A stretch of 64,000 nucleotides of DNA, taken from the NCBI GenBank assembly GCA_026394195.1, contig JAPKYS010000023.1:333339-397338 (forward strand). Reading direction: 5' to 3'. Both the position numbers and the translations under genes were made by a program. Positions 1-34,708 of the stretch are shown one piece after another (positions within the stretch are counted from its first letter, which is position 1; each line of letters begins with the position of its first letter). The DNA comes from a bacterium (lineage in GTDB: Bacteria; Electryoneota; B3-LCP). Under the pieces are notes generated by a model that saw only the letters and a list, made by a program, of their open reading frames with translations, did no database searches and was not told the DNA's origin.

Positions 1-316
1 TTGTTTAAGGCCGCGTTTACGACTCGAGTTCACACCACCGAACGAACAATATCAATTTTCAAAACTTTAATTATCATAAGCTTAGTAAGTATTTCTTAAG
101 AGTAACCGGACTGAAATTAAGGTTTTCCAGCTATTGGCATACCCATTGCTTATTCAGAAGAAAAATGTCCGGCGTTCATACAAACTGAACGACTGAAAAC
201 AGAGGCGCTTTCCGTTTCGTGAATATTATCGCCTGCCAATGACTATTGATGCAGCACTGTTGAAAGTCTCAAGCGCGCCAGGTATTGACAACTTGACACG
301 ATGGGAGGCACTGAAG

Positions 317-595
317 ATGTCAATTGGAGTAACTCATCAGGGTATTTGCCAGAATTGCGTCCATGTCGGACAATGCGTCCAATTGCAGAAATCAGCCAGT
401 CCCGTCTGGTTTTGTGACAACTTTGACTGCACTGAAACTCCGGAATGTCAAACCATTAAAGAGATTCTGCCACCCAAAAAGGTTGTCGTGAATCCAGAGA
501 AATTTCTGGGATTGTGCGCAAACTGTGATCAGCGTTCTTACTGCATCAATGCCAGGCAACCTGGTGGGGTTTGGCATTGTGAAGAATATCGATAA
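317..595 (+). CDS. Small Cys-rich protein with two copies of a C-x2-C-x4-5-C-x9-10-[WV]-[FH]-C-[ED]-[EN]-[FY] module (DUF1540-like)
   Basis: The ORF track opens this frame at 239. An ATG at 317 sits 8 nt after a GGGAGG ribosome-binding site (304-309), so 317 is the likelier start. Repeat A is ICQNCVHVGQCVQ...PVWFCDNFDC and repeat B is LCANCDQRSYCINARQPGGVWHCEEY. The next gene is a paralog. The DUF1540 assignment is from memory of that family's C-x-N-C...C...C-x-[TE]-F pattern. Confidence 0.55.
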   Translation: MSIGVTHQGICQNCVHVGQCVQLQKSASPVWFCDNFDCTETPECQTIKEILPPKKVVVNPEKFLGLCANCDQRSYCINARQPGGVWHCEEYR

Positions 596-641
596 TCCAA
601 GTTCCTAATATCGGCATTTCAGTTAACTGAGGGAGAAGATC

Positions 642-965
642 ATGTCAAGTCGCCCGGAAGAAATACGTCAAGCCACAACAGGTAAGTCGCGGTCAGGTCA
701 AAACGAGGGCTTGTGCATCACCTGCGAATCGCTAACGAATTGCTGTTTTCAGAAAAACGTAACTGAACCGGTGGTTTTTTGCGAGGAGTTTCATGTCAGC
801 AGCGCTCGTCTGCACGTCACCGAAATGCCTGGTTCTGCGAATCTAAAAAAAGAAGCGACCGGTGTTGCGCTTTACACTGGGCTCTGTATGAACTGCGACA
901 GCAATAATAATTGCGTTTATCCTCAAGCCGGGGCTGGTGGGTGGTTTTGTGAAGAATACGCCTAA
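642..965 (+). CDS. Small Cys-rich protein, tandem paralog of the preceding gene (two 4-Cys modules)
   Basis: The ribosome-binding site is GAGGGAGA. The two repeats are LCITCESLTNCCFQ...PVVFCEEFH and LCMNCDSNNNCVYPQAGAGGWFCEEYA, the same module as in 317..595. Confidence 0.6.
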   Translation: MSSRPEEIRQATTGKSRSGQNEGLCITCESLTNCCFQKNVTEPVVFCEEFHVSSARLHVTEMPGSANLKKEATGVALYTGLCMNCDSNNNCVYPQAGAGGWFCEEYA

Positions 966-1017
966 ATCGAGACATTGAATATACCCCCAAAAATACTTAA
1001 TTGCGGAAAATCAAAAG

Positions 1018-1866
1018 ATGAATGTCGAAGTCGTTCACAATATACTCCATAAGCATCAGAATGCCCAGGACGGCTTGATTTCGATCCTCGAGGATATCCA
1101 GAGTCAGTTCGGATATCTGCCAGCAGAAGCTCTCAAAATTGTAGCTGGAGAATCGGGCAAGGCTCTGGTCGATATTTATGGCGTTGCTACTTTTTACAAA
1201 TCCTTCAGCTTGAAGCCTCGAGGCAAACACTTGATTTCGGTATGCCTGGGGACAGCCTGTCACGTGCGAAATGCCCCGGTCATCGGCCAGGAATTTGAGC
1301 GCCAATTGGGCGTAAAAGCAGGGGAAACAACCGAGGATTGGGAATTTACTCTGGAAAGAGTGAACTGCCTGGGAGCCTGCGCTCTCGGACCGATAGTCGT
1401 CGTGGATGGTCATTATTTCTCGAAGGTTAACACAGCCAAAGTCAAACAGATCATCGACCGTGCCCGGCGCGGTTTGGACAAGGTTGAAGTCAAGACTGAC
1501 AACCGCGTCTTTCCTATCGGTGTCAGGTGTCCGCGTTGCAACCACAGTCTGATGGACTCGAAACACCTGATTGACGGTCTGCCCTCCATTCGCGTCACTG
1601 CCTCATATGACCGCATGCACGGACGTTTGAGTCTGTCCAGCCTGTACGGCAGCTATAACGTTTCAACTGAATACGTTGTCCCTGACAACGCCATCGTAAA
1701 TCTGTTCTGCCCGCACTGCCACGCCATGTTCAGCGGCAGCAGTGACTGTACCATCTGCGAAGCTCCATTGATACCCATGATTGTAGACGGCGGCGGAATG
1801 CTGCAAGTCTGCTCGAGGAATGGCTGTAAAAACCATATGTTGGACCTGAGCGGAATTAACATCTAA
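1018..1866 (+). CDS. NuoE/HoxE/HydC-like thioredoxin-fold [2Fe-2S] subunit with a C-terminal Cys-rich (zinc-ribbon-like) extension
   Basis: The N-terminal ~160 aa carry the NuoE cluster motifs CLGTACHV...CLGACALGP. The C-terminal ~110 aa carry RCPRCNH...CPHCHA...CTICEA...CSRNGC, four CxxC-type pairs. Confidence 0.8.
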   Translation: MNVEVVHNILHKHQNAQDGLISILEDIQSQFGYLPAEALKIVAGESGKALVDIYGVATFYKSFSLKPRGKHLISVCLGTACHVRNAPVIGQEFERQLGVKAGETTEDWEFTLERVNCLGACALGPIVVVDGHYFSKVNTAKVKQIIDRARRGLDKVEVKTDNRVFPIGVRCPRCNHSLMDSKHLIDGLPSIRVTASYDRMHGRLSLSSLYGSYNVSTEYVVPDNAIVNLFCPHCHAMFSGSSDCTICEAPLIPMIVDGGGMLQVCSRNGCKNHMLDLSGINI

Positions 1867-1877
1867 TCGGTATCAGG

Positions 1878-3770
1878 TTGCTCGCATCAAAAACTTGTCA
1901 TCAAGATTTAAGAAATAACATGGAAAAAATAACATCGATGGAAGACTTCAAGCTCTTCCGGGAACGTCTGATATCGAGTATAGATCGAAGCACACCGACC
2001 CTGGTTATTACGGCTGGGACTTGCGGTCAAGCCAGCGGCGCCAATGACTTGATACGAATCGCCAAGCGCGAGATTATATCGCGGGGGTTGACGGAGAAAA
2101 TCAAGCTGCGCATCACCGGTTGTTTCGGCTTCTGCGAAGCCGAGCCGAGCATCCTTCTCGAACCTTACGGCACCTTTTATCCGAACGTGGGGGTCGGTGC
2201 AGTTCCGGGTATTATCGATGCGGTTTCTAAGAAGGACGTCATCGAGGAACTGCTCTATAAGGATCCGATAACTGGAGATCCGATAGAGAAGCAGAACGAT
2301 ATACCCTTCTTCGGTAAACAGTTGCGAACGCTGTTAAGCAGAAACCAAAAGGTCGATCCGATCCGCATCTTCAATTATATTGAAAATGGTGGATACTCCG
2401 CTTTTGCCGCGGTTTTAGCCAAGCACCAGCCCAGATGGGTCATCGAAGAGGTGAAGGCGTCGGGGCTGCGGGGCCGCGGTGGCGCAGGTTTCCCGACCGG
2501 ACTGAAATGGGAGTTATTGTCAAATCAGAAAAACGGCGCAGGCAAGTATCTGGTTTGCAATGCCGATGAAGGTGACCCGGGAGCCTATATGGACCGCAGC
2601 GTCCTGGAAGGTAATCCTCACTGCATCATCGAAGGGATGCTAATCGGCGGTTTCGCCACTGGCGCGACTGAAGGCGTTATCTATGTCAGAAATGAATATC
2701 CTCTTGCCATCAAGCATCTGGTGATCGCGCTCAGACAGATGCACGAAATCGGACTTTTAGGGCAGGACATCCTCGGATCCGGGTTCTCATTCGATATCAA
2801 CATCGTGCGTGGGGCAGGAGCTTTCGTATGCGGCGAAGAAACGGCGCTCATCCACTCGATTGAAGGGCGAATGGGTGAACCCCGCCAACGCCCGCCTTTC
2901 CCTATTTCGCACGGTATCTATGGCAAACCCACTGCGATCAACAACGTGGAAACCTGGGCGAACGTGCCGATTATATTCGAAATCGGCGCCAAAAAGTTTG
3001 CCAAGATCGGCACACCTAATAATTCAGGAACCAAAATATTCAGCCTCGTAGGTAAGATCAAAAATACCGGCTTGGTTGAAGTCCCTATGGGGATCACCAT
3101 CGATGAAATCGTGAATGACATCGGAGGCGGTCCATCAGGCAAATTCAAGATAAAGGCGGTTCAAACAGGCGGACCTTCAGGCGGTTGTATCCCGGTTGAG
3201 AAATTTGACCTGGCCATCGACTATGATCACTTGTCGCAAGTGGGCTCAATCATGGGTTCCGGTGGTATGATCGTAATGGACGAAAATACCTGCATGGTTG
3301 ACGTCGCCAAATACTTCATGGGCTTCCTGAAGGAAGAATCTTGCGGTAAATGTTACCCTTGCCGTAAGGGGACTCAGAGGATGTACGAAATCCTCGATGA
3401 CATCTGCAAGGGGGTCGGCACTCTTGAACAGCTTGATCTACTCGAAGAATTAGCCAAAGTCGTTCAAGATAGCACCATGTGTGGCTTGGGACAGACTGCG
3501 CCAAACCCTGTTCTATCAACCTTAAGATACTTCAAAAACGAATATCACGAACATATTGAGCATCAACGCTGTCCTGCTGGAGTGTGCAAGGACCTGATCA
3601 CCTTTGCCATCAATGACAACTGCACCGGCTGCATGTTCTGTTCGCGCAACTGTCCTGCGGATGCTATCTCGGGTGGGAAGAAAGAACAGCACGTAATTGA
3701 TCAGGAGAAGTGCACTTGCTGTGGGTCTTGCTTGTCAGTATGTAAATTTGACGCTGTCCACGTCGAATAA
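1878..3770 (+). CDS. NuoF/HoxF/HydB-like NADH-binding FMN iron-sulfur subunit (N-terminal Trx-like domain, C-terminal 2x[4Fe-4S] ferredoxin)
   Basis: GRGGAGFPTGLKW is the FMN/NADH-site motif of 51-kDa subunits. ESCGKCYPCR is the [4Fe-4S] motif. The C-terminus has CTGCMFCSRNCP and CTCCGSCLSVC ferredoxin motifs. The true start may be the internal Met at about 1920. Confidence 0.85.
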   Translation: MLASKTCHQDLRNNMEKITSMEDFKLFRERLISSIDRSTPTLVITAGTCGQASGANDLIRIAKREIISRGLTEKIKLRITGCFGFCEAEPSILLEPYGTFYPNVGVGAVPGIIDAVSKKDVIEELLYKDPITGDPIEKQNDIPFFGKQLRTLLSRNQKVDPIRIFNYIENGGYSAFAAVLAKHQPRWVIEEVKASGLRGRGGAGFPTGLKWELLSNQKNGAGKYLVCNADEGDPGAYMDRSVLEGNPHCIIEGMLIGGFATGATEGVIYVRNEYPLAIKHLVIALRQMHEIGLLGQDILGSGFSFDINIVRGAGAFVCGEETALIHSIEGRMGEPRQRPPFPISHGIYGKPTAINNVETWANVPIIFEIGAKKFAKIGTPNNSGTKIFSLVGKIKNTGLVEVPMGITIDEIVNDIGGGPSGKFKIKAVQTGGPSGGCIPVEKFDLAIDYDHLSQVGSIMGSGGMIVMDENTCMVDVAKYFMGFLKEESCGKCYPCRKGTQRMYEILDDICKGVGTLEQLDLLEELAKVVQDSTMCGLGQTAPNPVLSTLRYFKNEYHEHIEHQRCPAGVCKDLITFAINDNCTGCMFCSRNCPADAISGGKKEQHVIDQEKCTCCGSCLSVCKFDAVHVE

Positions 3771-3800
3771 TCGGAATTACCGTCGTAGGGAAAATACAAG

Positions 3801-4478
3801 ATGATCAATCTAACCATCAACGGATTAGACCTCTCAGTTGAAGAAGGAACAACGCTGCTCGAGGCAGCCAGGTTTTGGGGCTTTCCCATCCCGACATTGT
3901 GCGCCATGGAAGGACTCTCACCCTATGGAGCTTGTCGCCTGTGCGTCGTAGAGATAGGGGAGGGCAAACAGGTAAAACTGGTCAGTTCCTGCACCTACCC
4001 AGCCCAGGAAGGATTAAAAATCCGCACAGCCTCCGAGAGGGTGCTACGTGCGCGCAAAATGATTATCGAGTTGCTGCTTGCTTCCTGCCCGCAGTCGAAA
4101 ATTATCCAGGATCTGGCATCCAAACACAATGTTCGTCAGCAGCGATTCAGGCAGGAATACGAAGACTGTATTCTCTGTGGCTTGTGCGTACGCATGTGCG
4201 AGGAACAGATGATGGCGAAAGCCATTGGATTTCGCGGAAGAGGTGAAACCAGAAGCATCGGCACCCCCTTTGACGTCCGCAGTGAAGTTTGCCGGCTTTG
4301 CGGAGGTTGTATGTATGTCTGTCCGGCATGTCAGCTCCGCTGCACCTTTACTGAACCTGAAAAAGCCATCTGCGGCGGTTGTGCAAATCTAAGCCCACCC
4401 TGCGTGGAAAAACCAACGTTCGACGACATGATGTGTTACATGGATCCGTGCGTTGCCTGTGAGATTGTCAAAAAATAG
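3801..4478 (+). CDS. Iron-sulfur protein resembling the N-terminal region of NuoG/HydA/HndD (2Fe-2S ferredoxin fold plus [4Fe-4S] clusters), lacking any catalytic domain
   Basis: CAMEGLSPYGACRLC is the plant-type 2Fe-2S pattern. CILCGLCVRMCEE and CRLCGGCMYVCPAC are [4Fe-4S] motifs, and an extra Cys cluster sits at the C-terminus. Confidence 0.7.
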   Translation: MINLTINGLDLSVEEGTTLLEAARFWGFPIPTLCAMEGLSPYGACRLCVVEIGEGKQVKLVSSCTYPAQEGLKIRTASERVLRARKMIIELLLASCPQSKIIQDLASKHNVRQQRFRQEYEDCILCGLCVRMCEEQMMAKAIGFRGRGETRSIGTPFDVRSEVCRLCGGCMYVCPACQLRCTFTEPEKAICGGCANLSPPCVEKPTFDDMMCYMDPCVACEIVKK

Positions 4479-4516
4479 AGATGCGAATCATATAAAAGGA
4501 AATTAGGAGACCCAAA

Positions 4517-6169
4517 ATGGCAGCGTCGCTTTCAAGAATAAACTCTTCTGCCGCTACTCTGACGAAAAACCGTACCGAAGGTTCAATCACTCCGATTTCG
4601 GGAATGTGCGTTACCTGCGTCGATGGATGCATCGGCATGTGTGAAATCGGCAAGTCCGCTTATCGTGGGCATGAAGTCATTTATCCACAACCCTTTGGTG
4701 TGATCACAACGGCGGCGGAAAAGGTTTATCCGGTTGATTACTCCCACTTAAATATCATGGGAACTTGCGTCGGCGCGTATGGGATTGAAGCAGATAGTAA
4801 CAAGGCGGTCTTTCCTGCTGTCAATCTTGAAGTCCGAATTGGTTATGATAAAGGATTGAAGTTCAAATTACCTATCATGATCCCCGGAATCGGTTCAACC
4901 AACATCGCCAAGAACAATTGGGAAGGTCTGGCGATCGGTACGGCTCTGGCGGGAACCGGTCTAACCATCGGCGAGAATGTCGTTGGAATGGACCCTCAGG
5001 CAGTGATAAAAGATGGCAGGATTCTCGATACGGTAGACTTAAAGCGCCGCGTCAATCTGTTCAAGGATCATCAGCGGGATGGCTACGGTGCAATCATCGT
5101 ACAAGCCAATATCGAAGATACGCGCCTGGGAGTCCAGGAATATGCCATAGAATATCTCGGTGTTGAGTGCGTCGAGCTCAAATGGGGGCAGGGCGCCAAG
5201 GATATCGGCGGTGAAGTCAAAGTTAGTGACCTTAAGAAAGCGCAGTTACTCTATGAACGCGGCTATATCGTCCTACCGAATCCGACAGATCCGGACGTCA
5301 TCAGAGCCTTCGAGCGCGGTTCCTTCAAGGAATTTGAGCGCCATTCCCGCGTTGGTATGGTGACCGAGGAAGGATTTGCCAAGCGTGTGGGCGAGTTGCG
5401 CAAAGCCGGAGCGAAATATGTCTTCCTCAAGACCGGAGCCTACAGACCTGTTGATCTGGCGCGAGCCGTATCATTCGCTTCAAAGTACGGCATTGATCTA
5501 CTCACAGTCGATGGAGCCGGCGGCGGCACGGGGATGAGCCCCTGGCGGATGATGAATGAGTGGGGTGTGCCTACTCTGGAATTGCACTCCATGCTCTACC
5601 AGTACATCAAGAGACTGGCTGACCGTGGCGAACACGTTCCGGCATTGGCTTTGGCCGGCGGGTTTACCTTTGAAGACCAAATGTTCAAAGGCCTCTCCAT
5701 GGGTGCTCCTTTCGTCAAGCTGATCGGCATGGCGAGAGCCCCAATTGCTGCGGCGATGGTTGGAAAAACCATCGGACGCACGATCGATGAGCATCAGCTT
5801 CCCGTCTACATCGAGAGATTTGGCGACTCAAAAGAAGAAATCTTCGTAACTGCAGCCTCATTGCGTAAGGAGCTGGGTGACGAAGAGTTTGAAAAGATCC
5901 CCACAGGTGCGCTTGGGTTGTATACCTACTATGAACGTCTCGCTCAGGGTTTGCAGCAACTCATGTGCGGGAGTCGTAAGTTCAAGATGGACTATCTGTC
6001 ACGTGATGATCTGGCATGTCTCACGCACGAAGCTGCCGAAGTCACCGGTTTGCCGTACATAATGGATCTGGACCGGAAAGAGGCAATTGAAATTCTGGAT
6101 AAATCGAATGGGCAGCCGGTACAGCTTCAGAAGGCCCAAATGAAAAAGGCTTCAAGTAAAACCGTTTAG
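4517..6169 (+). CDS. Glutamate-synthase central (FMN-binding) domain family protein with an N-terminal 4-Cys cluster (archaeal-type GltB domain-2-like)
   Basis: A strong AGGAG ribosome-binding site precedes it. The N-terminus is CVTCVDGCIGMC. DGAGGGTGMSPW matches the Glu_synthase FMN-domain signature (GHDGGTGASP-like). There are TIM-barrel-like G-rich segments IPGIGSTN and GLTIGENVVG. Confidence 0.75.
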   Translation: MAASLSRINSSAATLTKNRTEGSITPISGMCVTCVDGCIGMCEIGKSAYRGHEVIYPQPFGVITTAAEKVYPVDYSHLNIMGTCVGAYGIEADSNKAVFPAVNLEVRIGYDKGLKFKLPIMIPGIGSTNIAKNNWEGLAIGTALAGTGLTIGENVVGMDPQAVIKDGRILDTVDLKRRVNLFKDHQRDGYGAIIVQANIEDTRLGVQEYAIEYLGVECVELKWGQGAKDIGGEVKVSDLKKAQLLYERGYIVLPNPTDPDVIRAFERGSFKEFERHSRVGMVTEEGFAKRVGELRKAGAKYVFLKTGAYRPVDLARAVSFASKYGIDLLTVDGAGGGTGMSPWRMMNEWGVPTLELHSMLYQYIKRLADRGEHVPALALAGGFTFEDQMFKGLSMGAPFVKLIGMARAPIAAAMVGKTIGRTIDEHQLPVYIERFGDSKEEIFVTAASLRKELGDEEFEKIPTGALGLYTYYERLAQGLQQLMCGSRKFKMDYLSRDDLACLTHEAAEVTGLPYIMDLDRKEAIEILDKSNGQPVQLQKAQMKKASSKTV

Positions 6170-6313
6170 TATAGCGGCTTAACGGTTTTAGAAGCCCTTT
6201 AATGAGGCGATTAATCTTCACCCTTGCGCAAATTCCGCTTTGTTGGAGCTAATTCGGTTTCGCCTCAGTTGACCGAAGGCAAGGTAGAACAATGTTCGTG
6301 ACTCCTTGAACGA

Positions 6314-6346
6314 GGGCTGACCAGAACGGTCAGCCCTTTATTTTTT
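6314..6346 (+). terminator. Rho-independent terminator after the oxidoreductase operon
   Basis: GGGCTGACC-agaac-GGTCAGCCC hairpin followed by TTTATTTTTT. Confidence 0.7.
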
Positions 6347-6497
6347 GAGATGAATGGTTTCTGGTGAAATCGTCACGGCTCGGTGGAAATGCATGGACGT
6401 ACACCTTTTTCGTGACTCCCCGAAACAAATCCTAACCAAATATTGAATTTACGAAGAATATTTTGTACTTTCAATTAGTCATCACCATCCAGCGACC

Positions 6498-6761
6498 TTG
6501 ATGTGGACTGGTTTCAAGAATGCTCTGAAGAGGTATTACAATTTCTGTCTGCAAGAATGGGTCAATCGAGGTTATGTGAACAGGATGGAAGTACAGTCTA
6601 TTGAGGGTCTCATCGTCATGCCGGGATGGTGGGGGGATGAGCGACTGCACGCATCGCACCGCTCGAATCTTCTACGCAAAGATCCCGATTATTATGGTCG
6701 ATTTGGTTGGAAGGAAAGCCCTGACCTCTCTTACTTCTGGCCAAGCAGGGAAGGGTTTTGA
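6498..6761 (+). CDS. Small hypothetical protein (TTG start); the C-terminal motif HASHRSNLLRKDPDYY may relate to a pyrimidine-dimer-glycosylase-like family
   Basis: An 87-aa ORF in an otherwise empty 600-bp gap. The motif recollection is weak and there is no N-terminal catalytic region. Confidence 0.3.
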   Translation: MMWTGFKNALKRYYNFCLQEWVNRGYVNRMEVQSIEGLIVMPGWWGDERLHASHRSNLLRKDPDYYGRFGWKESPDLSYFWPSREGF

Positions 6762-6779
6762 AGAGGTATTTTATTAGCC

Positions 6780-7616
6780 TTATACCTCATCACTGCCGCC
6801 GATGAGCGCCGTAATCGCCTGACTCCAGCCCAGGATTCCACTATTTCGTGTGAATTTAATTCCGCGTCTGCCAATGTGTCCATCAAACCCACCTCGCGAA
6901 TTCCTCACTAAAATCGGTTGATCCACCGCGTAGAGCATGGGACCGTCAGAACTGCTGTCGCCAATCCCGATGGTTTTTATTTCACGATCGGGGTACTCTT
7001 CACGGTAGAGTTGCACTATGAAGCGGAGGGCTCCACCCGTATCATGATCACCGGTCAGGAGAAAATGATTACCGAGTGGTACCAGGTGTAGATTTAAATT
7101 TTCGATTTCTGCGTAGAGCAGCTTTAACGTTTCAATGTCGCCGTTGAACACAACCGGTTCAGTATATTTTCTGTACTTCGCTGAGGCGAGATCCTCAAGC
7201 TTTATCCCTGCAGCTTCCCTGAGGCGCTTGGATTTTAAATCTGAAACTTTCCAGAGTTTGCCTCCTGTCGTCGTATAAAGATAACCCAGCCTTTCATGAA
7301 TTAATTTGCGATCGATTCCAAATTCAATAATATCGCAGCCCCGCGATCTTTTTGAAAATGAATACTTTATGGTCAAAAGATCCTTGGGGATATAAATAGC
7401 TGCGCCGCTTTCAATGACGAAAGCGTAGGGAATGGCGCTTGACCCAATTTTATCTTCGACGTCTCTCGCACTTTTGTGCGAGGTGAATATCAGCGGAATG
7501 CCGGTATCCTCCAATAAACGGAACGCTTGTTGTGCTTCCGGAGAGCAAATCGATTGCGCATCCAGAATGGATCCGTTGAGTCCGGTGAAGATCAGCGATT
7601 GCTCCAATTGGCTCAT
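6780..7616 (-). CDS. HAD-IIB-like (mannosyl/glucosyl-3-phosphoglycerate phosphatase/YedP family) protein with a degenerate motif I
   Basis: Family-like layout: LIFTGLNGSILD stands where hhhDxDGTLLD is expected, the motif III Lys is in TSHKS, and motif IV reads GDSSSDG. Both motif-I Asp residues are replaced (G and N). Confidence 0.6.
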   Translation of the reverse strand: MSQLEQSLIFTGLNGSILDAQSICSPEAQQAFRLLEDTGIPLIFTSHKSARDVEDKIGSSAIPYAFVIESGAAIYIPKDLLTIKYSFSKRSRGCDIIEFGIDRKLIHERLGYLYTTTGGKLWKVSDLKSKRLREAAGIKLEDLASAKYRKYTEPVVFNGDIETLKLLYAEIENLNLHLVPLGNHFLLTGDHDTGGALRFIVQLYREEYPDREIKTIGIGDSSSDGPMLYAVDQPILVRNSRGGFDGHIGRRGIKFTRNSGILGWSQAITALIGGSDEV

Positions 7617-7777
7617 AATTCCTTCCCTCTACCTCAAAGAAACCGATCAATCCGGAAAATGTTTCCCTACGCACGGTTCAGGGGCTACTAAAAATATGTT
7701 GGAATGAGCACTCACCCAAGGTTCAGCGCTACATTCAGGCTGCTTTTTATAAAGGAACTTGCAAAAAGACTTGCAGG

Positions 7778-7806
7778 TTGAAAAAAAATTTGGTACTTTA
7801 TAATGA
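7778..7806 (+). promoter_or_regulatory. Candidate σ70-type promoter for lon (TTGAAA-N17-TAATGA) with a ~200-nt leader
   Basis: The hexamers and spacing were read directly. The leader holds an inverted repeat, ACTCCGG...CCGGAGT (7860-7900). Confidence 0.3.
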
Positions 7807-8020
7807 TTCCCTTAATTCTCTGGACATAGAACAAATCAGATTTTCGATAGACAGTCGTGTCACTCCGGCTTAGCCTGCCCCATTGGGGTCCGGAGTCAGA
7901 CACGCCGCCAGATTCCCGACGCAGGCTGAAGCCTTTGCGGGAATGACAGCTTCTCTTACCCTGCGACATAAGTCCAGTTACTTATGGGAATCGCTATAAT
8001 ACGTGTATAAACCGAGATGA

Positions 8021-10381
8021 ATGAAAATGGACGCAGGTACACCTAAGGAAAATCTTAATAATCTCAATATACCGACCGAGCTGCCGGTTATGCCGCTAAG
8101 AGACATTGTCCTCTTTCCCGGCACCGTCTATCCTCTGTTAATTGGCAGACCCGGCAGTTTAAAGGTCATTGAGGAGGTTCTTAACAAAGAGCGGTTTATC
8201 GCGCTATTATCCCAGAATGACCCACAAGTGGAAGAACCTAATTCTGAGACCCTCTATCACATCGGAGTTGCCGGGCGTATCACGCAGTTACTCAGGCTTC
8301 CCACGGGAATGACCAAGGTTCTCGTCGAAGCGGTATCTCGGATTGAAGTAACGGAATTTTTTCAGAAAAACGAACTCTTGATGGCAAAGTTGAGCCCCTT
8401 TACACCGGAGATCGAGAATAGCCGTCGAGTCCTGGCTGCACTGCGTCGTGCCACTTCCGTATTTAAAGAATACACCGCTCTTAATCAGAATGTTCCGGAC
8501 GAGATACTACTCGGATTGGAACAGATACAACTTCCGCAACAGATTGCTGATTACATCGCGGCCTACATCGAATGTGAATACAAGAAGAAACAGGTTATTC
8601 TGGAGTACAATGACCTCTATCAGCAGCTGCTTTCGCTCACCAAGCTTCTCAGGGAAGAAATCGATATCCTGAAGATCGAGAAATCGATTGATAATCTGAC
8701 TCGGGATAAGTTGGCAAAATCTCAGCGAGTCTACTATCTGCAAGAACAAATGAAGCTGATCAGGCGCGAGTTGGGCGATGAAGGCGAGGACGAGGATGAG
8801 GATGCCATCGTTGAATATCGAGAGAAGATCCGTAAAGCCCGGATGCCCAAAGACGTCAAAGAGAAGGCGTACGAAGAACTCGAGCGATTGACAGGTATGG
8901 CTGACCTATCCCCTGAGGCAACGGTTGTTCGCACCTACCTCGATTGGATATGTGGTCTGCCCTGGTCCAAGCGCACCAAGGATAACCTGGACATCGAACG
9001 CGCCCGTAAAATGTTGGACGATGACCATTATGGCCTGGAAAAGCCGAAAGAACGCATTCTCGAGCACCTTTCTGTCTTGAAATTGGTGGAGCGCTTAAAG
9101 GGTCCGATCCTCTGCCTGATAGGACCTCCTGGAGTGGGGAAGACCAGCCTGGGTAAATCCGTTGCCCGGGCGATGAGTCGTCAATTTGTCCGAGTCTCTC
9201 TCGGCGGGGTCAGAGATGAAGCGGAGATACGCGGGCATCGGCGTACCTATATCGGAGCTCTCCCGGGACGCATCATCCAGTGCATTAAAAAAGCCGGCAG
9301 CAAGAACCCAGTCTTCCTTCTGGATGAAGTCGATAAGATGAACTCTGACTTCCGCGGCGATCCGGCTTCTGCCCTGTTGGAAGCTCTTGATCCTGAGCAA
9401 AACACCAATTTTTTGGATCATTATCTCGATGTGGATTTCGACCTGTCTGAGGTGCTCTTCATTACCACCGCCAATACCGAGGAGGGTATTCCCCTACCGC
9501 TGCTCGACCGGATGGAAGTGATCCGGCTGCCGGGCTATCTGCGAACCGAAAAACTGCATATCGCCCAAAAATTCCTGATGCCCAAGCAGCTCTTGGCGAA
9601 CGGTCTGAAGAATAGCCATCTGGATTTAACCAAGGAAGCGTTGCTGCGCATTATTGATGAGTATACCCGGGAAGCGGGGGTGCGGGAGCTGGAACGCCAC
9701 TTGGCTAAAATATGCCGAAAAGTAGCAAGAAAAGCCGCCGAAAATGAGCTCAAGGGTCGGGAAATGGTCAAGGTACCGAATCTGCGCAGCTTTCTCGGTG
9801 TGTCCAAATATCCGGACCGTCAGTTGCAGCGTACGCCAAAAGTCGGCAGAGCGACAGGATTAGCCTGGACGGCAGCGGGTGGAGAAATCCTTTCCATTGA
9901 CGTTACACTGCTTCAAGGTCGCAATGACATGATCTTGACGGGACAACTGGGCGATGTGATGAAGGAGTCAGCCCGTGCTGCGCTCTCCTATTTAAAGGAT
10001 CGCGCTAAACAGTTGGGTCTTGGTGATGACGCCTTTCGTGGACGCGAAGTTCACCTTCATATTCCGGAAGGCGCAGTGCCAAAAGATGGACCCTCAGCAG
10101 GGATAACCATCGCGGCGGCGTTATATTCCGCGGTTTCCGGAAAACCCCTGTCACAGGAGATTGCCATGACCGGCGAAATCACTCTGCGCGGCGAAATTCT
10201 TGCGATTGGAGGTTTACCGGAGAAACTGCTCGCAGCCAAGCGACATCGCATCAAACGGGTCTTGATCCCCAGGGAAAATCTTCCGCAGCTTTCCGAAATA
10301 TCTCCGGAAGTGAGGCGCGGTTTGAAGGTTACACCGGTATCCAATCTGGATGAGGTGTGGCAAATCCTCAACTTTAATTGA
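8021..10381 (+). CDS. lon: ATP-dependent Lon protease (LonA)
   Basis: N-terminal LON substrate-binding domain. Walker A is GPPGVGKTS. The catalytic Ser motif is KDGPSAGIT and Lys is in KRHRIKR. 786 aa. Confidence 0.95.
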   Translation: MKMDAGTPKENLNNLNIPTELPVMPLRDIVLFPGTVYPLLIGRPGSLKVIEEVLNKERFIALLSQNDPQVEEPNSETLYHIGVAGRITQLLRLPTGMTKVLVEAVSRIEVTEFFQKNELLMAKLSPFTPEIENSRRVLAALRRATSVFKEYTALNQNVPDEILLGLEQIQLPQQIADYIAAYIECEYKKKQVILEYNDLYQQLLSLTKLLREEIDILKIEKSIDNLTRDKLAKSQRVYYLQEQMKLIRRELGDEGEDEDEDAIVEYREKIRKARMPKDVKEKAYEELERLTGMADLSPEATVVRTYLDWICGLPWSKRTKDNLDIERARKMLDDDHYGLEKPKERILEHLSVLKLVERLKGPILCLIGPPGVGKTSLGKSVARAMSRQFVRVSLGGVRDEAEIRGHRRTYIGALPGRIIQCIKKAGSKNPVFLLDEVDKMNSDFRGDPASALLEALDPEQNTNFLDHYLDVDFDLSEVLFITTANTEEGIPLPLLDRMEVIRLPGYLRTEKLHIAQKFLMPKQLLANGLKNSHLDLTKEALLRIIDEYTREAGVRELERHLAKICRKVARKAAENELKGREMVKVPNLRSFLGVSKYPDRQLQRTPKVGRATGLAWTAAGGEILSIDVTLLQGRNDMILTGQLGDVMKESARAALSYLKDRAKQLGLGDDAFRGREVHLHIPEGAVPKDGPSAGITIAAALYSAVSGKPLSQEIAMTGEITLRGEILAIGGLPEKLLAAKRHRIKRVLIPRENLPQLSEISPEVRRGLKVTPVSNLDEVWQILNFN

Positions 10382-11198: not shown

Positions 11199-13583
11199 AT
11201 GAACGCCAGAACCTCATCCAAAGGTAAATTAGCCACTGATTTGTTCGGCACAGCAGCAACTCCGGTTCACGAAGTAATTGCTGAAGAGGTCTCTGAAATA
11301 CCGACACTAAAAACACCCCCTCCGGACAGCTACACCTATAGTGACAATAGTCTCGCCGTACTAAAACGCCGATACCTCGCAAAAGACTCTCAGGGTCAAG
11401 TCGTAGAAACACCGGAAGAGATGTTCAGGCGGGTTGCCAGACATATCGCCGGCGCAGAAAAGATCTTCAACCCAAAGATCACTCGACAGGAACTCGGTGA
11501 GATTGAGAATACTTTTTTCAACCTCATGGCTTCACTCGACTTTCTGCCGAACTCTCCAACCTTGATGAATGCGGGTCGCGAGCTGGGTCAACTATCCGCC
11601 TGCTTTGTTCTACCGGTTGAAGACAGCATGGAAGGCATCTTTGACGCCCTCAAGTACACTGCTCTGATCCACAAGAGTGGGGGAGGAACGGGATTTTCTT
11701 TTTCCAGATTGCGTCCCCGGGACAGCATGGTGCAATCCACCGCCGGAACTGCGTCCGGACCGGTCTCGTTCATGACTGTCTTCAACGCAGCTACTGAAAC
11801 GGTAAAGCAGGGAGGCACCAGGCGTGGTGCGAATATGGGAATCCTGCGCGTGGATCACCCTGACATTGAACAATTTCTGGATTGTAAAAAGGGCGAGAAC
11901 GCGCTCAATAATTTCAATATTTCGGTCGCAGTCACCGATGAATTCATGGATGCGGTAAAGAACAATTCCAAGTTCGCCTTGCGCGATTCGCGTACCGGAT
12001 ACGTTCTGAAAGAGCTCGAGGCAAAGCAGCTTTTCGATCGCATTGCCGACAACGCCTGGCATAATGGTGAACCCGGAATCGTTTTTATCGACCAGATCAA
12101 CCGCAGCAACCCCACACCCGAATTAGGTGCCATCGAATCAACCAATCCTTGCGGTGAACAACCGTTGCTCCCTTACGAATCCTGCAACCTGGGTTCCATC
12201 AACCTCAGCAGCCTGATCTTGGATGATGGAGTCGATTGGGATCGATTGGAAATGATTATCAAGTTGGCGGTCCGCTTTCTTGACAACGTGATCGAAGTCA
12301 ACAAGTATCCATTGCCGGAAATTGACAAAATAACTCGCGCCAACAGGAAAATCGGCTTGGGATTGATGGGATTTGCCGACCTGCTTTTTCAGTTGGAAAT
12401 CCCCTACAACAGCAGTGAGGGGATCAAGATGGGCGAAGAAATCATGCACTTTGTCCAGCGGGTCTCGCACCGCGCTTCCGAAGATCTGGCCAAGTGGCGA
12501 GGTCCCTTTTCCAATTACGAGCATTCAACCTTCAAGACGCCGATCCGCAATGCCACAGTCACGACAATTGCACCTACCGGGACTTTGTCGATGATCGCCG
12601 ACTGTTCCGGTGGCATTGAGCCTGCATTCAGTCTGATCTATGTTAAAAAGGTGATGGACGGTCAGGAACTGCTGTACGTGAATCGTTACTTCGAGAAGGC
12701 GTTGCAGCGCGCCGGTCTATCCAGCGAATCCCTGGTGGAGAAAATAGCCAATTGCAAATCCCTCGAAGAGATCATCGAGATACCTAAACCTCTGCGCCGC
12801 ATTTTTGTCACCGCGCTGGAGATCGCTCCAGAATGGCACGTCCGTATGCAGGCTGTTTTTCAGAAAGATTGCGACAATGCCGTCTCAAAAACGATTAACT
12901 TCCCCTTCAGTGCAACGATATCCGACGTGAAATATGCCTATATGCTGGCTTATGATCTGGGGTGCAAAGGGCTGACCGTTTATCGTGATGGTTCGCGCTC
13001 CGAACAGGTGATGAACGTTGGCGCCTCGGTTACGCCCACACCCAAGGTGGAAGAGAAGGAAATCCGCCCGCGGCTGCACCCCCGCAAACGTCCTGCCGTA
13101 ACCTTCGGTATGACCGAAAGAGTCAATACCGGCGATGGAGCCATCTACATCACCATTAATGAGGACGAACACGGACCTTGCGAGGTGTTCACCTCCATCG
13201 GTAAAGCGGGCGGTAATTTAGCTGCTCAATCCGAGGCGATCTCGCGGTTGATATCGCTGGCTTTACGTTCCGGGATTGAACCCAAAGAGATTATCAAGCA
13301 GTTACGGGGCATATCCGGACCGAACTCCATCTGGGAAAACGGCACTCTCATTACTTCTGCTCCGGATGCCATCGCCAAGGCGTTGGATCGCTACATCCAA
13401 CGTCGCGCCGCCAACGGCAAGAACGAAGTCGTTGCTCCAATAGTCGTTGAAGAGCAATTGGAGATCATCAAGGATACCAACATTCAGGAAGTTCCCGATC
13501 AGTGCCCGGATTGCGGCGACAAGATCGCTCACGAAGACGGCTGTCTGGTCTGCCGCTCCTGCGGGTTTACCAGGTGTGGGTAG
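11199..13583 (+). CDS. nrdJ: Class II (adenosylcobalamin-dependent) ribonucleotide reductase, monomeric type, with a C-terminal zinc ribbon
   Basis: It contains the NPCGEQPL active-site region. The C-terminus is CPDCGDKIAHEDGCLVCRSCGF. 794 aa. Confidence 0.9.
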   Translation: MNARTSSKGKLATDLFGTAATPVHEVIAEEVSEIPTLKTPPPDSYTYSDNSLAVLKRRYLAKDSQGQVVETPEEMFRRVARHIAGAEKIFNPKITRQELGEIENTFFNLMASLDFLPNSPTLMNAGRELGQLSACFVLPVEDSMEGIFDALKYTALIHKSGGGTGFSFSRLRPRDSMVQSTAGTASGPVSFMTVFNAATETVKQGGTRRGANMGILRVDHPDIEQFLDCKKGENALNNFNISVAVTDEFMDAVKNNSKFALRDSRTGYVLKELEAKQLFDRIADNAWHNGEPGIVFIDQINRSNPTPELGAIESTNPCGEQPLLPYESCNLGSINLSSLILDDGVDWDRLEMIIKLAVRFLDNVIEVNKYPLPEIDKITRANRKIGLGLMGFADLLFQLEIPYNSSEGIKMGEEIMHFVQRVSHRASEDLAKWRGPFSNYEHSTFKTPIRNATVTTIAPTGTLSMIADCSGGIEPAFSLIYVKKVMDGQELLYVNRYFEKALQRAGLSSESLVEKIANCKSLEEIIEIPKPLRRIFVTALEIAPEWHVRMQAVFQKDCDNAVSKTINFPFSATISDVKYAYMLAYDLGCKGLTVYRDGSRSEQVMNVGASVTPTPKVEEKEIRPRLHPRKRPAVTFGMTERVNTGDGAIYITINEDEHGPCEVFTSIGKAGGNLAAQSEAISRLISLALRSGIEPKEIIKQLRGISGPNSIWENGTLITSAPDAIAKALDRYIQRRAANGKNEVVAPIVVEEQLEIIKDTNIQEVPDQCPDCGDKIAHEDGCLVCRSCGFTRCG

Positions 13584-14907: not shown

Positions 14908-15266
14908 GGGGACGACATGGTTTCGACGGGATAGGAGGAAGCTGGATCAGCAGGCCGGGGAATGGCGTGTACCCCGAATAAACTTCGCTAAAACATCAAA
15001 TGCCGACAATTACGGCTACGCCTTAGCTGCTTAAAAAAAAGCAGCTACGCTCCACTCAGTCTTAGCCTATCGGGTTGAGAAGTGAGCGACAATTAGATGG
15101 GCTGGCGTCGTTCTGCGCCTCGGTGAACGAAGCGAGATTCAGAGGCTGGCTGGCGCTTAGATCTGTCGATGGATGTTGGCGCCGGCGAGAATCAAACATC
15201 GACTAAGCCTGTAGCGGGTCCTTCTGCCGCTATTTCGGACGCGGGTTCGATTCCCGCCGTCTCCAC
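14908..15266 (+). ncRNA. ssrA: tmRNA (SsrA)
   Basis: The 5' GGGGACG pairs with the 3' CGTCTCC-A, giving a G3·U wobble in an Ala-acceptor-like stem. The 3' T-arm is GGTTCGATTCCCGCC. The tag ORF is ...GCC GAC AAT TAC GGC TAC GCC TTA GCT GCT TAA, i.e. (A)DNYGYALAA-stop, at 15002-15034. A TATAAT -10 lies at 14899-14904 and a terminator follows. CCA is not encoded. Confidence 0.85.
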
Positions 15267-15267
15267 A

Positions 15268-15304
15268 AAAACCACTTCCAACTTCCGGGGAGTGGTTTGT
15301 TTTT
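15268..15304 (+). terminator. Rho-independent terminator after ssrA
   Basis: AAACCACT-(14-nt loop)-AGTGGTTT followed by GTTTTT. Confidence 0.7.
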
Positions 15305-18733: not shown

Positions 18734-18781
18734 CCGACGCGAATAGTTACCAAGATTGAATGAACTAATGCGATATAACCC

Positions 18782-34673: not shown

Positions 34674-34708
34674 AAACAACGCCGTCCAATTGGGCGGCGT
34701 TGTTTTAT
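34674..34708. terminator. Bidirectional hairpin terminator between convergent genes
   Basis: AACAACGCCGTCC-aatt-GGGCGGCGTTGTT, flanked by T-runs on one strand and A-runs on the other. Confidence 0.65.

Follow-up and report, generated by a model that had tools for sequence, protein, structure and literature searches.

A conserved six-gene operon predicted to couple a Bfu-type NADH/ferredoxin module to a GltB-like FMN subunit

Closest described systems

Among Bfu (HydABC-type) enzymes, BfuB carries a five-residue His/Cys signature that, according to Schut et al. (2022), almost every BfuB has and non-bifurcating homologs lack, and third substrates of high potential have been suggested for Nuo-Bfu and Rub-Bfu (PMC9304861). 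In WorABCSL, a Type-2 BfuABC enzyme of Acetomicrobium mobile (PDB 9MQX), WorA provides the wiring between the BfuBC core and separate catalytic subunits (PMC12318220), while NfnABC (Stn) is a Bfu-type NADH-dependent ferredoxin:NADP+ oxidoreductase. Glutamate synthases include the NADPH-dependent GltBD (Azospirillum brasilense, E. coli) and archaeal or F420-dependent split enzymes, and GltS modules with alternative electron-input modules are known (e.g. F420-dependent forms; PMC9012536). For GSU1235-GSU1239 of Geobacter sulfurreducens, the label "GOGAT" and a prediction of RpoN dependence date back to 2009 (PMC2725144), and GSU1239 rises together with glnA (PMC2725144, PMC6964889); we found no biochemical characterisation of these genes in the literature.

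We compared these systems with a six-gene operon in a 64-kb stretch of bacterial DNA (hereafter the window). As in WorABCSL, BfuC and BfuB have full cofactor motifs and the B2/Zn signature, and BfuA is small and truncated, without the A3 cluster and the alpha/beta/alpha C-terminal domain, and with extra C-terminal Cys; we propose that here too it connects separate catalytic subunits. Unlike BfuABC and WorABCSL, the partner is a glutamate-synthase-family FMN TIM barrel (GltB2) and not a tungstopterin, hydrogenase, formate dehydrogenase, or NfnL-type module. In addition, the operon begins with one or two genes for Cys-rich small proteins, the BfuB of most operon relatives ends in a GltD-like module and not a ferredoxin domain, and BfuC is extended at its C-terminus by a 130-aa domain with 8 Cys; its HydC/BfuC matches in the PDB have only 154-189 residues. 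NfnABC shares the BfuBC core and, with a long variant of the operon, a GltD/NfnL-like module. However, its GltD-like domain is in BfuA and not in BfuB, it has no GltB-like subunit (PMC12018979), and the short variant in the window lacks any NADP(H) module.

With GltBD and the split glutamate synthases, GltB2 shares PF01645, the QGAK and DGxxGGTGxSP motifs, and the C-terminal helix; a GltD-like module is present in 55 of 71 related operons, and electrons may reach the FMN via Fe-S clusters, as they do in GltBD. By contrast, GltB2 lacks the Ntn-amidotransferase, central, and GXGXG domains, a CX2CX3CX3C motif replaces the 3Fe-4S triad, the similarity is remote, and electron input would come from a Bfu core. 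Compared by annotation only, GSU1235-GSU1239 are probably related to the operon: they comprise two hypothetical genes, a pyridine-nucleotide-disulfide oxidoreductase, an Fe-S protein, and a "glutamate synthase-related protein" behind a predicted RpoN promoter, but seemingly no NuoE/NuoF-like genes.

The first-pass annotation did not recognise this subunit combination as a described complex. We found no paper characterising the six-gene set, and the 2022 Bfu survey (PMC9304861) and later Bfu papers include no glutamate-synthase-type partner; the set is widespread. As such, a Bfu-type NADH/ferredoxin enzyme with a GltB-like subunit appears to be uncharacterised, though the gene set has been noticed before.

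Operon layout and subunits

All six open reading frames of the first-pass annotation are present at its coordinates (Table 1). Intergenic gaps are 46, 52, 11, 30, and 38 nt, the third becoming 53 nt if nuoF starts at ATG 1920, as it probably does; the earlier figure of 50 nt or less holds to within 2-3 nt but not strictly. The single terminator, previously placed at 6314-6346, is real, with a stem at 6312-6338 followed by TATTTTTT, and is by far the best among terminator-like sites in positions 1-8100. For the first small gene, the most probable start is ATG 317 rather than 239; it follows a GGGAGG Shine-Dalgarno sequence (302-307) and agrees with the homologs.

The one promoter match compares with 0.16 expected by chance in the window (both strands), and 18 of 55 related loci have a similar strict motif (TGGC[AC][CT]-N5-TTGC[ATC]) ahead of the operon, the background rate being 0.018 per 900 nt. 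The window begins 134 nt upstream of the promoter, and two-component neighbours were counted in related loci with enough flank. There, the commonest upstream neighbours are NtrC-type two-component genes (i.e. sigma-54 activators), often as a GAF-histidine-kinase/NtrC-type pair, and two-component genes adjoin the operon in about half (23 of 46 loci). Glutamate dehydrogenase adjoins or sits within the operon in seven related loci from several phyla. Judged from sequence, the six genes most likely form one sigma-54-dependent operon.

Table 1. Coordinates of the operon and its features in the window
Feature	Position	Strand	Size	Basis
Sigma-54 (-24/-12) type promoter, TGGCATACCCATTGCT	135..150	+		sole TGGCAY-N5-TTGCW match in the 64-kb window, either strand
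Operon	317 (239)..6169	+		six co-directional genes, from promoter to single strong terminator
Cys-rich small protein A	317..595	+	92 aa	ORF open from 239; two modules G(L/I)C-x2-C-x5-C-x12-C-(E/D)-x-(F/Y)
Cys-rich small protein B	642..965	+	107 aa	tandem paralog of A
BfuC/HydC/NuoE-like [2Fe-2S] subunit	1018..1866	+	282 aa	PF01257, E = 2.7e-46
BfuB/HydB/NuoF-like subunit	1878..3770	+	630 aa	PF01512, PF10589, C-terminal 4Fe-4S dicluster
Small BfuA (HoxU/WorA-like)	3801..4478	+	225 aa	PF13510, Fer4_7
GltB-FMN-domain-like subunit (GltB2), putative catalytic	4517..6169	+	550 aa	PF01645, 55 bits; AF2 model
Intrinsic terminator, operon end	6312..6346	+		11-bp stem with 7 G-C pairs, 5-nt loop, T-run

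The proposed HydC/HydB-like module stands, including the NuoE-like identity of the 282-aa protein: the nearest solved relatives of both proteins are bifurcating Bfu subunits and not complex I. BfuC comprises the [2Fe-2S] part (residues 1-150; best PDB match HydC, chain 8a6t_C, 7.9e-45) and the C-terminal domain with its eight invariant Cys (C171, C174, C231, C234, C244, C247, C265, and C270; conservation 50/50), for which Pfam/NCBIfam profiles give only faint zinc-ribbon matches. BfuB keeps the complete HydB architecture, as the HydB/HndC assignment had it, i.e. an N-terminal Trx-like 2Fe-2S domain (weak 2Fe-2S ferredoxin NCBIfam matches at residues 47-130), the FMN/NADH site, an N3-type 4Fe-4S cluster, the B2/Zn site, and a C-terminal 2x[4Fe-4S] ferredoxin domain. 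Its PDB matches include 7t2r_B (NiFe-Bfu HydB; E = 2e-213), 7q4v_B (1.5e-205), and, among the best, NfnB 9n5u_B (3.4e-200); complex I NuoF scores some 100 orders of magnitude worse in E-value. Residues C472, C510, H559, C565, and C570 align with C438, C476, H525, C531, and C536 of NiFe-Bfu HydB, so that all five B2/Zn-site signature residues (PMC9304861) are kept.

The 225-aa protein, first described as a detached N-terminal part of NuoG/HydA, is indeed a truncated BfuA/NuoG N-terminal module, with WorA of WorABCSL as its best PDB match (chain 9mqx_A, 1.7e-35). It has a [2Fe-2S] site (C34, C45, C48, and C64), two CX2CX2CX3C [4Fe-4S] motifs, and eight further invariant C-terminal Cys (C177-C220); its sequence lacks the His-ligated A3 motif, and every Cys is invariant among 55-57 homologs.

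The 550-aa protein had been read as Glu_synthase-FMN-like with its own N-terminal Cys cluster, a claim left to stand or fall with a domain search. GltB2 does match Glu_synthase (E = 8e-15, cut-off 20.4 bits), over residues 281-402 only and just 119 of 369 profile positions; this is its sole Pfam family match, and NCBIfam models give none. Searches of the PDB with phmmer and profiles barely reach GltB (E = 0.04), and a sub-profile around QGAK gives no match. The AF2 model is an FMN TIM barrel (pLDDT 82.7), and hhalign aligns the core with the FMN domain of E. coli GltB (E = 2e-5), its greedy extension also aligning the QGAK motif and the C-terminal helix. Motifs of GltB2 are ELKWGQGAK and DGAGGGTGMSP; the FMN-phosphate motif is kept, and R248 lies 20 residues past K228, as the Arg of AKLR lies 20 past the Lys of QGAK in E. 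coli GltB. The GltB 3Fe-4S Cys triad is absent, and in its stead stands C31-x2-C34-x3-C38-x3-C42, with Cys invariant in 71-72 of 72 sequences. The first reading noted no amidotransferase, and indeed neither this nor a GXGXG domain is encoded anywhere in the window or in the 10-kb surroundings of any of the 81 related loci. GltB2 is probably a divergent, remote homolog of the FMN domain of the glutamate synthase large subunit.

The two small proteins, which are paralogous, each contain two 4-Cys modules (C-x2-C-x5-C-x11-13-C-E-E-Y/F), four in total as first counted, and are putative accessory metal-binding partners. Across 28 family members, C85 of protein B is conserved in at least 90%, and the other seven of its eight motif Cys columns do not vary. 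In this family of at least 1497 proteins, every member is annotated as "hypothetical" and no Pfam domain is assigned to any; protein A has no Pfam/NCBIfam match. The suggested DUF1540 identity is rejected, as the profile search gives no match even at E<=1. Most relatives of the operon have a single Cys-rich gene, compared with two here.

Conservation and variants in related loci

The GltB2 gene occurs in at least 596 species, and the operon is almost unchanged across hundreds of anaerobic bacterial species. We sampled 80 loci for synteny, 71 of them decidable. A neighbourhood census, proposed earlier as a check, finds NuoEF homologs adjoining GltB2 in all 71, in the order nuoE-nuoF-hoxU-gltB2 and across more than 15 phylum-level lineages; nuoF, hoxU, and gltB2 are always adjacent, and nuoE precedes nuoF wherever the contig reaches far enough. 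The arrangement is far from random, as all related loci with sufficient flank share this order. Identity of BfuA and GltB2 across phyla remains near 80% (medians of 82% and 79%) despite saturation at 4-fold degenerate sites (18-35% identity), and both proteins are under strong purifying selection.

The short form in the window, in which NuoF ends in a ferredoxin domain, is the minority (16 of 71 loci). In the long form, this domain is replaced by a GltD-like NAD(P)H/FAD/2x[4Fe-4S] module. GltD is the native partner of GltB. The earlier statement that no GltD subunit is present is thus correct for the window but not for the long-form operons, where the module is fused to NuoF.

Candidate reactions of the complex

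With about even confidence, we read the operon as encoding a Bfu-type, nitrogen-linked, 2-oxoglutarate-aminating oxidoreductase, i.e. a soluble Fe-S flavoprotein complex. One complex is suggested because synteny is strict, BfuC, BfuA, and GltB2 carry invariant extra Cys, and BfuA and GltB2 are so highly conserved. A link to glutamate and nitrogen is proposed because of the GltD-like fusion, the glutamate dehydrogenase genes, the sigma-54 promoter with its NtrC-type pair, and the GSU1235-1239 parallel. Against a GOGAT-like reading, the defining GOGAT features (3Fe-4S triad, amidotransferase, and GXGXG domain) are missing. In addition, the 2-oxoglutarate/glutamate couple is at about -0.13 V, far above the mid-potential range of characterised Bfu third substrates, and the canonical Bfu energetic scheme is therefore not applicable as it stands.

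It is possible, if doubtful, that the wiring is as proposed but GltB2 acts on another substrate. Candidates include another 2-oxo or imino acid, an N-alkyl-glutamate-type reaction, an enoate, and a dihydropyrimidine-like C=C bond; a substrate of lower potential might be compatible with the canonical scheme. This reading is opposed by the exclusive Glu_synthase match (FMN_dh, IMPDH, and DHO_dh models give none), by the alignment of QGAK, DGxxGGTGxSP, and the C-terminal helix with GltB, and by the seven glutamate dehydrogenase loci and sigma-54/NtrC-type regulation. We consider unlikely a plain, non-bifurcating glutamate-synthase-like enzyme, in which the NuoEF-like module would be a diaphorase like HoxEFU of NAD-reducing hydrogenases, passing NADH electrons through the Fe-S chain to the FMN subunit with ferredoxin not a substrate. 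On thermodynamic reasoning, NADH reduction of 2-iminoglutarate is already exergonic, so ferredoxin coupling is not required; HoxE and HoxU rank among the top NCBIfam matches (both below their cut-offs), and the long form replaces the ferredoxin-docking domain. Yet the window NuoF keeps the whole HydB architecture, dicluster domain and His/Cys signature included, and its nearest solved relatives are all bifurcating.

The long form resembles NfnABC in joining a BfuBC core to a GltD/NfnL-like NAD(P)H module (PMC12018979), and the enzyme could be a Nfn/Stn-like transhydrogenase or NADH:ferredoxin oxidoreductase with GltB2 as an electron-transfer, storage, or regulatory subunit that turns over no substrate. 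This is improbable, given that the short form keeps GltB2 without a NADP(H) module, that GltB2 is among the two most conserved subunits and retains the FMN-phosphate and QGAK motifs, and that the GltD-like domain of NfnABC is in a different subunit. It is scarcely credible that a NuoEF/HoxU-type NADH:ferredoxin module and an unrelated co-transcribed FMN protein are mere neighbours: more divergent GltB2 homologs (~50% identity) do stand alone in Thermoleophilia and Asgard archaea, but order and adjacency are identical in 71 of 71 loci across many phyla, hoxU and gltB2 co-vary in conservation, and the BfuA C-terminus and GltB2 N-terminus carry complementary invariant Cys sites.

For the 2-oxoglutarate-aminating oxidoreductase, the Bfu-type core and signature residues bear out the NADH-linked, possibly bifurcating module first suggested, while bifurcation itself and the substrate are what we infer. 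BfuC and BfuB would form the conserved core, with NAD(H) at the FMN and ferredoxin at the C-terminal 2x[4Fe-4S] domain. BfuA would serve as an Fe-S wire only ([2Fe-2S], two [4Fe-4S], and the extra Cys sites), passing electrons to the N-terminal Cys4 site of GltB2 and on to its FMN, the putative catalytic site for the third substrate. The drive may come from NADH and reduced ferredoxin together, or from NADH alone with the surplus driving force reducing ferredoxin; in the long form, with a GltD-like module in place of the docking domain, the second reductant is probably NADPH. By reducing 2-iminoglutarate formed from 2-oxoglutarate and free ammonia, the enzyme would yield glutamate without an amidotransferase and independently of ATP.

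Operon layout and surrounding genes

The operon represents a variant of the HydABC-type electron-bifurcating (Bfu) enzyme family with a glutamate-synthase-type partner; it is uncharacterised, occurs very widely, and is conserved to an unusual degree, and the function we propose for it is plausible. The family of electron-bifurcating Bfu-type enzymes was recognised only recently, and its mechanism is still debated. The first-pass annotation had described a candidate novel NADH-linked complex joined to a flavoprotein resembling domain 2 of GltB; that interpretation is essentially supported, and the finding is real. The six co-directional genes it described are confirmed as ORFs (239/317-6169), separated by gaps of 46, 52, 11, 30, and 38 nt, and are followed by a single convincing terminator. 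Small gene A most likely starts at ATG 317, because a GGGAGG lies 10 nt upstream and the resulting length matches that of its homologs, and nuoF probably starts at ATG 1920. The sigma-54 pattern upstream of the operon is matched only once in the 64-kb window, where 0.16 matches are expected by chance. No Rfam element (riboswitch or leader RNA) matches positions 1-7000 of the window at E ≤ 1.

Features of the operon, in window coordinates
Feature	Position	Strand	Remarks
Cys-rich small gene A	239/317-595	+	ORF
Cys-rich small gene B	642-965	+	ORF
nuoE-like	1018-1866	+	ORF, 282 aa
nuoF-like	1878-3770	+	ORF, 630 aa
hoxU-like	3801-4478	+	ORF, 225 aa
gltB2	4517-6169	+	ORF, 550 aa
Intrinsic terminator	6312-6346	+	11-bp stem with 7 G-C pairs, T-run; after the operon
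Sigma-54-type -24/-12 element TGGCATACCCATTGCT	135-150		upstream of the operon; pattern match

The 189-aa ORF on the strand opposite the nuoE-like gene (997-1566, - strand) is most likely spurious, since the + strand gene is strongly conserved. Elsewhere in the window lie a tmRNA gene (14908-15268, +; Rfam RF00023, 191 bits, model matched full-length) and a gene for SelA, the L-seryl-tRNA(Sec) selenium transferase (27950-29359, +; PF03841, 2e-132), from which we take it that the organism probably makes selenoproteins. Genes for a MoxR-type AAA ATPase (AAA_3) and, next to it, a DUF58/VWA protein (17750-19675, +) form a common paired module. An unusual-looking fusion of a TatD-type hydrolase (residues 3-252) and a radical-SAM domain (273-443) is encoded by a 457-aa ORF at 34708-36081 (-).

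Subunits of the predicted complex

The NuoE-like protein (BfuC), encoded beside BfuB, carries the NuoE/HydC thioredoxin-like [2Fe-2S] domain (PF01257, 2.7e-46), and among solved chains it comes closest to HydC from a bifurcating [FeFe] hydrogenase (8a6t_C, 7.9e-45). Its cysteines C76, C81, C117, and C121 are conserved in 48-49 of 49-50 homologs, and a C-terminal extension of 130 aa, with faint zinc-ribbon matches only, holds eight more Cys that are all invariant among 50 homologs.

Domain searches bear out the complete HydB architecture that had been read into the NuoF-like protein (BfuB), with both N- and C-terminal extensions present: a Nuo51 FMN-binding domain (PF01512, 1.1e-45), an NADH-4Fe-4S domain (PF10589, 2.3e-33), and a C-terminal Fer4 dicluster, as well as a weak SLBB match (2.7e-4) below cut-off. 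The protein aligns over its full length with its best solved relative, HydB of NiFe-Bfu (7t2r_B, E = 2e-213), which is followed by HydB of A. woodii (7q4v_B, 1.5e-205), NfnB (9n5u_B, 3.4e-200), and the B subunit of WorABCSL (9mqx_B, 5.5e-194), while complex I NuoF chains score near 1e-100. Its residues C472, C510, H559, C565, and C570 align with C438, C476, H525, C531, and C536 of 7t2r_B. These residues make up the His + Cys B2/Zn site, which is reported to occur in nearly all BfuB and to be missing from non-bifurcating NuoF homologs (Schut et al. 2022, PMC9304861); it is read as a Zn site in later structures (PMC12318220).

The HoxU-like protein, a small BfuA, combines 2Fe-2S and 4Fe-4S ferredoxin-type domains (PF13510, 9.8e-17; Fer4_7, 1e-7), with one [2Fe-2S] and two CX2CX2CX3C motifs. 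It lacks the His-ligated A3 motif and has eight additional, invariant Cys in its C-terminal part. Among solved structures it is closest to WorA (9mqx_A, 1.7e-35), the truncated BfuA through which separate catalytic subunits connect to the BfuBC core in WorABCSL (PMC12318220). The three proteins show the BfuB, BfuC, and BfuA domains and the B2/Zn-site signature of the Bfu family (PMC9304861), and the operon is assigned to the family by these features. The activity that defines the family, a coupled (bifurcating or confurcating) exchange of electrons between NAD(H), ferredoxin, and a third substrate, is predicted for its products.

Two better-known identities do not fit these proteins. A complex I NADH module (NuoEFG) is rejected on account of the two HydB-type extensions of NuoF; the NuoE and NuoG NCBIfam equivalog scores fall under their cut-offs, and of the NuoF models NF010120 just passes (399 vs 389) and TIGR01959 fails (480 vs 559). 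No nuo genes flank the operon among the ORFs inspected up to position 36081. The HoxEFU diaphorase of NAD-reducing [NiFe] hydrogenases is likewise rejected (HoxE 141.7 vs a cut-off of 224; HoxU 118.6 vs 333), and no hydrogenase genes are found within the operon or its flanks.

The 550-aa GltB2 had been taken for a protein with the FMN domain of glutamate synthase at its core. This holds by Pfam, where Glu_synthase (PF01645) is the single family matched (55.3 bits, gathering score 20.4; confined to residues 281-402 and to profile positions 185-303 of 369), and by hhalign of the GltB2 profile against the FMN domain of E. coli GltB (residues 781-1250; E = 2e-5, significant for residues 321-413). 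The [3Fe-4S] triad of E. coli GltB (C-x5-C-x4-C; CKYLRICHLNNC) has no counterpart in GltB2, the segment aligned to it (AAMVGKTIGRTIDEH) being without Cys. The greedy extension, an outer part of the alignment that is of low confidence, superposes GltB2 VELKWGQGAK on E. coli IQIKVAQGAK and the C-terminal helix YTYYERLAQGLQQLM...R.DL on NYFEFIARETRELM...RTDL. GltB2 has an N-terminal cluster of its own, C31-x2-C34-x3-C38-x3-C42, conserved in 71-72 of 72 homologs. NCBIfam models give no match to GltB2, and phmmer against solved structures returns nothing relevant; the family profile finds GltB there at E = 0.04 only, ranked below de novo TIM barrels, and a sub-profile around the QGAK motif finds designed proteins only. 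The AlphaFold2 model (pLDDT 82.7, pTM 0.84) predicts an FMN-type (beta/alpha)8 barrel resembling IDI-2, alpha-hydroxy-acid oxidases, IMPDH, DHODH, and GltS, none of which is singled out; the fold evidence is neutral as to the substrate.

The first two genes of the operon encode paralogs, each with two modules G(L/I)C-x2-C-x5-C-x11-13-C-E-E-(Y/F) separated by a variable linker. The suggestion that they belong to DUF1540 fails, with no Pfam match at E ≤ 1. Their family has at least 1497 members, annotated as 'hypothetical' among the matches listed, and the 120 matches listed out of these carry no precomputed Pfam domain. AlphaFold2 reaches a pLDDT of 42 for the Cys-rich protein, and the model is therefore unusable for fold comparison.

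Distribution, variants, and genomic neighbourhood

Close database relatives of GltB2 number more than 8000 and go by the name 'FMN-binding glutamate synthase family protein'. With one genome scanned per species, its gene is carried by at least 596 species, which belong to more than 15 phylum-level lineages of anaerobes. Neighbourhoods were taken from the best 80 loci, whose carriers include Planctomycetota (Phycisphaerae, Pirellulales, and the anammox Scalindua), Zixibacteria, Ignavibacteriales/Ignavibacteria, Bacteroidota, Acidobacteriota, Latescibacterota, Krumholzibacteriia, Eisenbacteria, Coatesbacteria, and Riflebacteria. Further carriers are Marinimicrobia, Verrucomicrobiota, Syntrophales, Myxococcota, and KSB1, as well as the syntrophic Syntrophorhabdus and Smithella. 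In 71/71 decidable loci nuoF, hoxU, and gltB2 are adjacent and in constant order, with nuoE preceding nuoF wherever the contig reaches far enough.

Median identity to the window proteins is 60% for NuoE, 67% for NuoF, 82% for the HoxU-like and 79% for the GltB-like protein, and about 32% for the Cys-rich proteins. Where residues are identical, the four-fold degenerate third positions agree in only 18-35% of cases and so are saturated, and the protein identity of about 80% therefore reflects strong purifying selection; recent horizontal transfer is rejected on the same ground and by the lower identities of nuoE and nuoF in the same operon. Conservation of this degree, as seen in the terminal two subunits, is what we would expect of core housekeeping proteins only. 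A library clustered at 50% identity yields a handful of full-length divergent GltB2 relatives, and those looked up stand alone, without NuoEF neighbours (Thermoleophilia, 51% identity; Jordarchaeia, 47%). In two loci of Jordarchaeia (Asgard), a 55-aa gene with no Pfam match lies before the stand-alone GltB-like gene (47%; L085 7824-7991, L086 2052-2219).

The family comes in two forms. In the short form found in the window, a minority of 16/71 loci, NuoF ends in a 2x[4Fe-4S] ferredoxin-type domain. In the long form (55/71), NuoF reaches about 1060 aa and ends instead in a GltD-like module (Fer4_20 + Pyr_redox_2), 33-35% identical to E. coli GltD over about 420 aa. The claim that no GltD subunit is present is thus correct for the window and incorrect for the family, where a GltD-like module is mostly fused to NuoF. 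That an amidotransferase is missing holds for the 64-kb window and for 81 related loci searched within 10 kb, in which tblastn with the E. coli GltB domain 1, central, and GXGXG domains gives no match at 1e-3. The two forms are interspersed in a simple neighbour-joining tree of the NuoF core, a pattern that is only suggestive since the branches carry no support values.

The genes seen most often upstream, on the same strand, encode a GAF-domain histidine kinase and an NtrC-type sigma-54 activator. Such genes are found in 35-38 loci (e.g. L009 1439-4556, and loci L003, L013, and L048); 46 loci have enough flank to look further, and in 23 of these they stand directly before the operon. The kinase has a second, unannotated sensor segment with the motifs CLYxIAQ, PPxWQYP, and DEGPFLxEE. 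Upstream of the operon, 18/55 loci show a strict sigma-54 motif, against a background of 0.018 per 900 nt. Glutamate dehydrogenase (GDH) abuts the operon on the same strand in seven loci from several phyla. In L048 of Candidatus Scalindua rubra (4179-5669) and in L042 (3675-5000), its gene lies between the Cys-rich gene and nuoE; the others are L001 (4710-6074), L002, L018, L025, and L050, the last with one GDH per side (5272-6645, 11804-13063). Among the 52 loci whose downstream flank is long enough, 5 have a PPDK_N protein directly after the operon on the same strand, and in about 10 loci one lies within 3.6 kb; one example is the 919-aa PEP/pyruvate-binding ATP-grasp protein downstream of gltB2 in L049 (10482-13241). 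Its N-terminus shares a GAF-like sensor segment with the histidine kinase of the operon, which suggests that the two may sense a common ligand.

Partner, function, and significance

To our knowledge, the third substrate of characterised Bfu members, i.e. the partner besides NAD(H) and ferredoxin, is always H2, formate, NADPH, or aldehydes. The survey by which the family was defined names Por, Codh, F420, Wor, Bam, Rub, Fdh, Nfn, Mbh, and Nuo as partners and leaves 17 BfuB clades unassigned (PMC9304861). We found no mention of a glutamate-synthase-type partner in its text or supplement, nor in later Bfu structure papers, and full-text literature searches returned no paper describing a Bfu/NuoEF-GltB-type complex. 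GltS modules with alternative electron-input modules, e.g. F420-dependent forms, have been described (PMC9012536). The single related mention found is the operon GSU1235-1239 of Geobacter sulfurreducens, annotated as two hypotheticals, a pyridine-nucleotide-disulfide oxidoreductase, an Fe-S protein, and a 'glutamate synthase-related protein', called GOGAT by its authors and predicted to have an RpoN promoter (PMC2725144); GSU1239 rises together with glnA in one transcriptome (PMC6964889). To judge by annotation it is a probable relative of the window operon; cluster look-ups of divergent GltB2 representatives returned Thermoleophilia, Asgard, and Clostridiales instead of any Geobacter protein.

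The best-supported reading is that the operon encodes a single soluble Bfu-type complex, given its strict synteny, co-conservation, and complementary invariant Cys sites. The rival view of mere adjacency of genes that form no complex is very unlikely; it has on its side the stand-alone divergent GltB2 relatives and has to account for an order kept in every decidable locus. In a single complex, BfuBC would handle NAD(H) and ferredoxin, and the WorA-like BfuA would wire this core to the GltB-FMN-like catalytic subunit via its conserved extra Cys sites. Less probably, NuoEF could be a non-bifurcating diaphorase, against which stands the B2/Zn site seen here and reported missing from non-bifurcating homologs. 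An Nfn-like transhydrogenase role would agree with the GltD-like module of the long form and is unlikely for the window operon, whose short form has no such module.

Within the preferred reading of a single Bfu-type complex, 2-oxoglutarate plus ammonia, converted to glutamate, is the most likely third substrate. The evidence is circumstantial: the family to which the catalytic subunit belongs, the fusion with GltD in most relatives, the adjacency of GDH, the sigma-54/NtrC-type control, and the Geobacter data, as annotated. The absence of several defining GOGAT features weakens this assignment, and a complex acting on another substrate is a less likely alternative. There is precedent in the family for proposed high-potential third substrates, namely menaquinone for Nuo-Bfu and H2O2 for Rub-Bfu (PMC9304861). 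The idea of a transhydrogenase that cycles glutamate and 2-oxoglutarate together with the neighbouring GDH is rejected on thermodynamic grounds.

By textbook potentials the 2-oxoglutarate/glutamate couple lies well above NADH, and the complex would therefore either use NADH and reduced ferredoxin jointly or bifurcate from NADH to ferredoxin and the imine. Joint use has been proposed for Nuo-Bfu and Rub-Bfu (PMC9304861). We regard it as unlikely, if worth stating, that the operon represents a new class of flavin-based bifurcating enzyme joining nitrogen assimilation to energy conservation. In such an enzyme, NADH would be oxidised at the BfuB FMN; at the GltB-like FMN, 2-oxoglutarate would be reductively aminated with free ammonia, a strongly exergonic step that would pull along the reduction of ferredoxin, which is endergonic (2 NADH + Fd_ox + 2-oxoglutarate + NH4+ -> 2 NAD+ + Fd_red + glutamate); in reverse, reduced ferredoxin would drive NAD+-linked glutamate oxidation. 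If true, anaerobes of many phyla would possess an ATP-free, amidotransferase-free route to glutamate, and the Bfu family would gain a mode with NADH as mid-potential donor.

With this operon the Bfu family gains an uncharacterised member that is partnered by a flavoprotein of the glutamate synthase family, and its pair of BfuB forms, with a ferredoxin domain or a GltD module, is a built-in experiment on the low-potential branch of Bfu enzymes. If glutamate is made, models of nitrogen assimilation and redox balancing would change for sediment and digester communities, where the genes of this operon are currently annotated as orphan nuoEF and 'glutamate synthase-related'.
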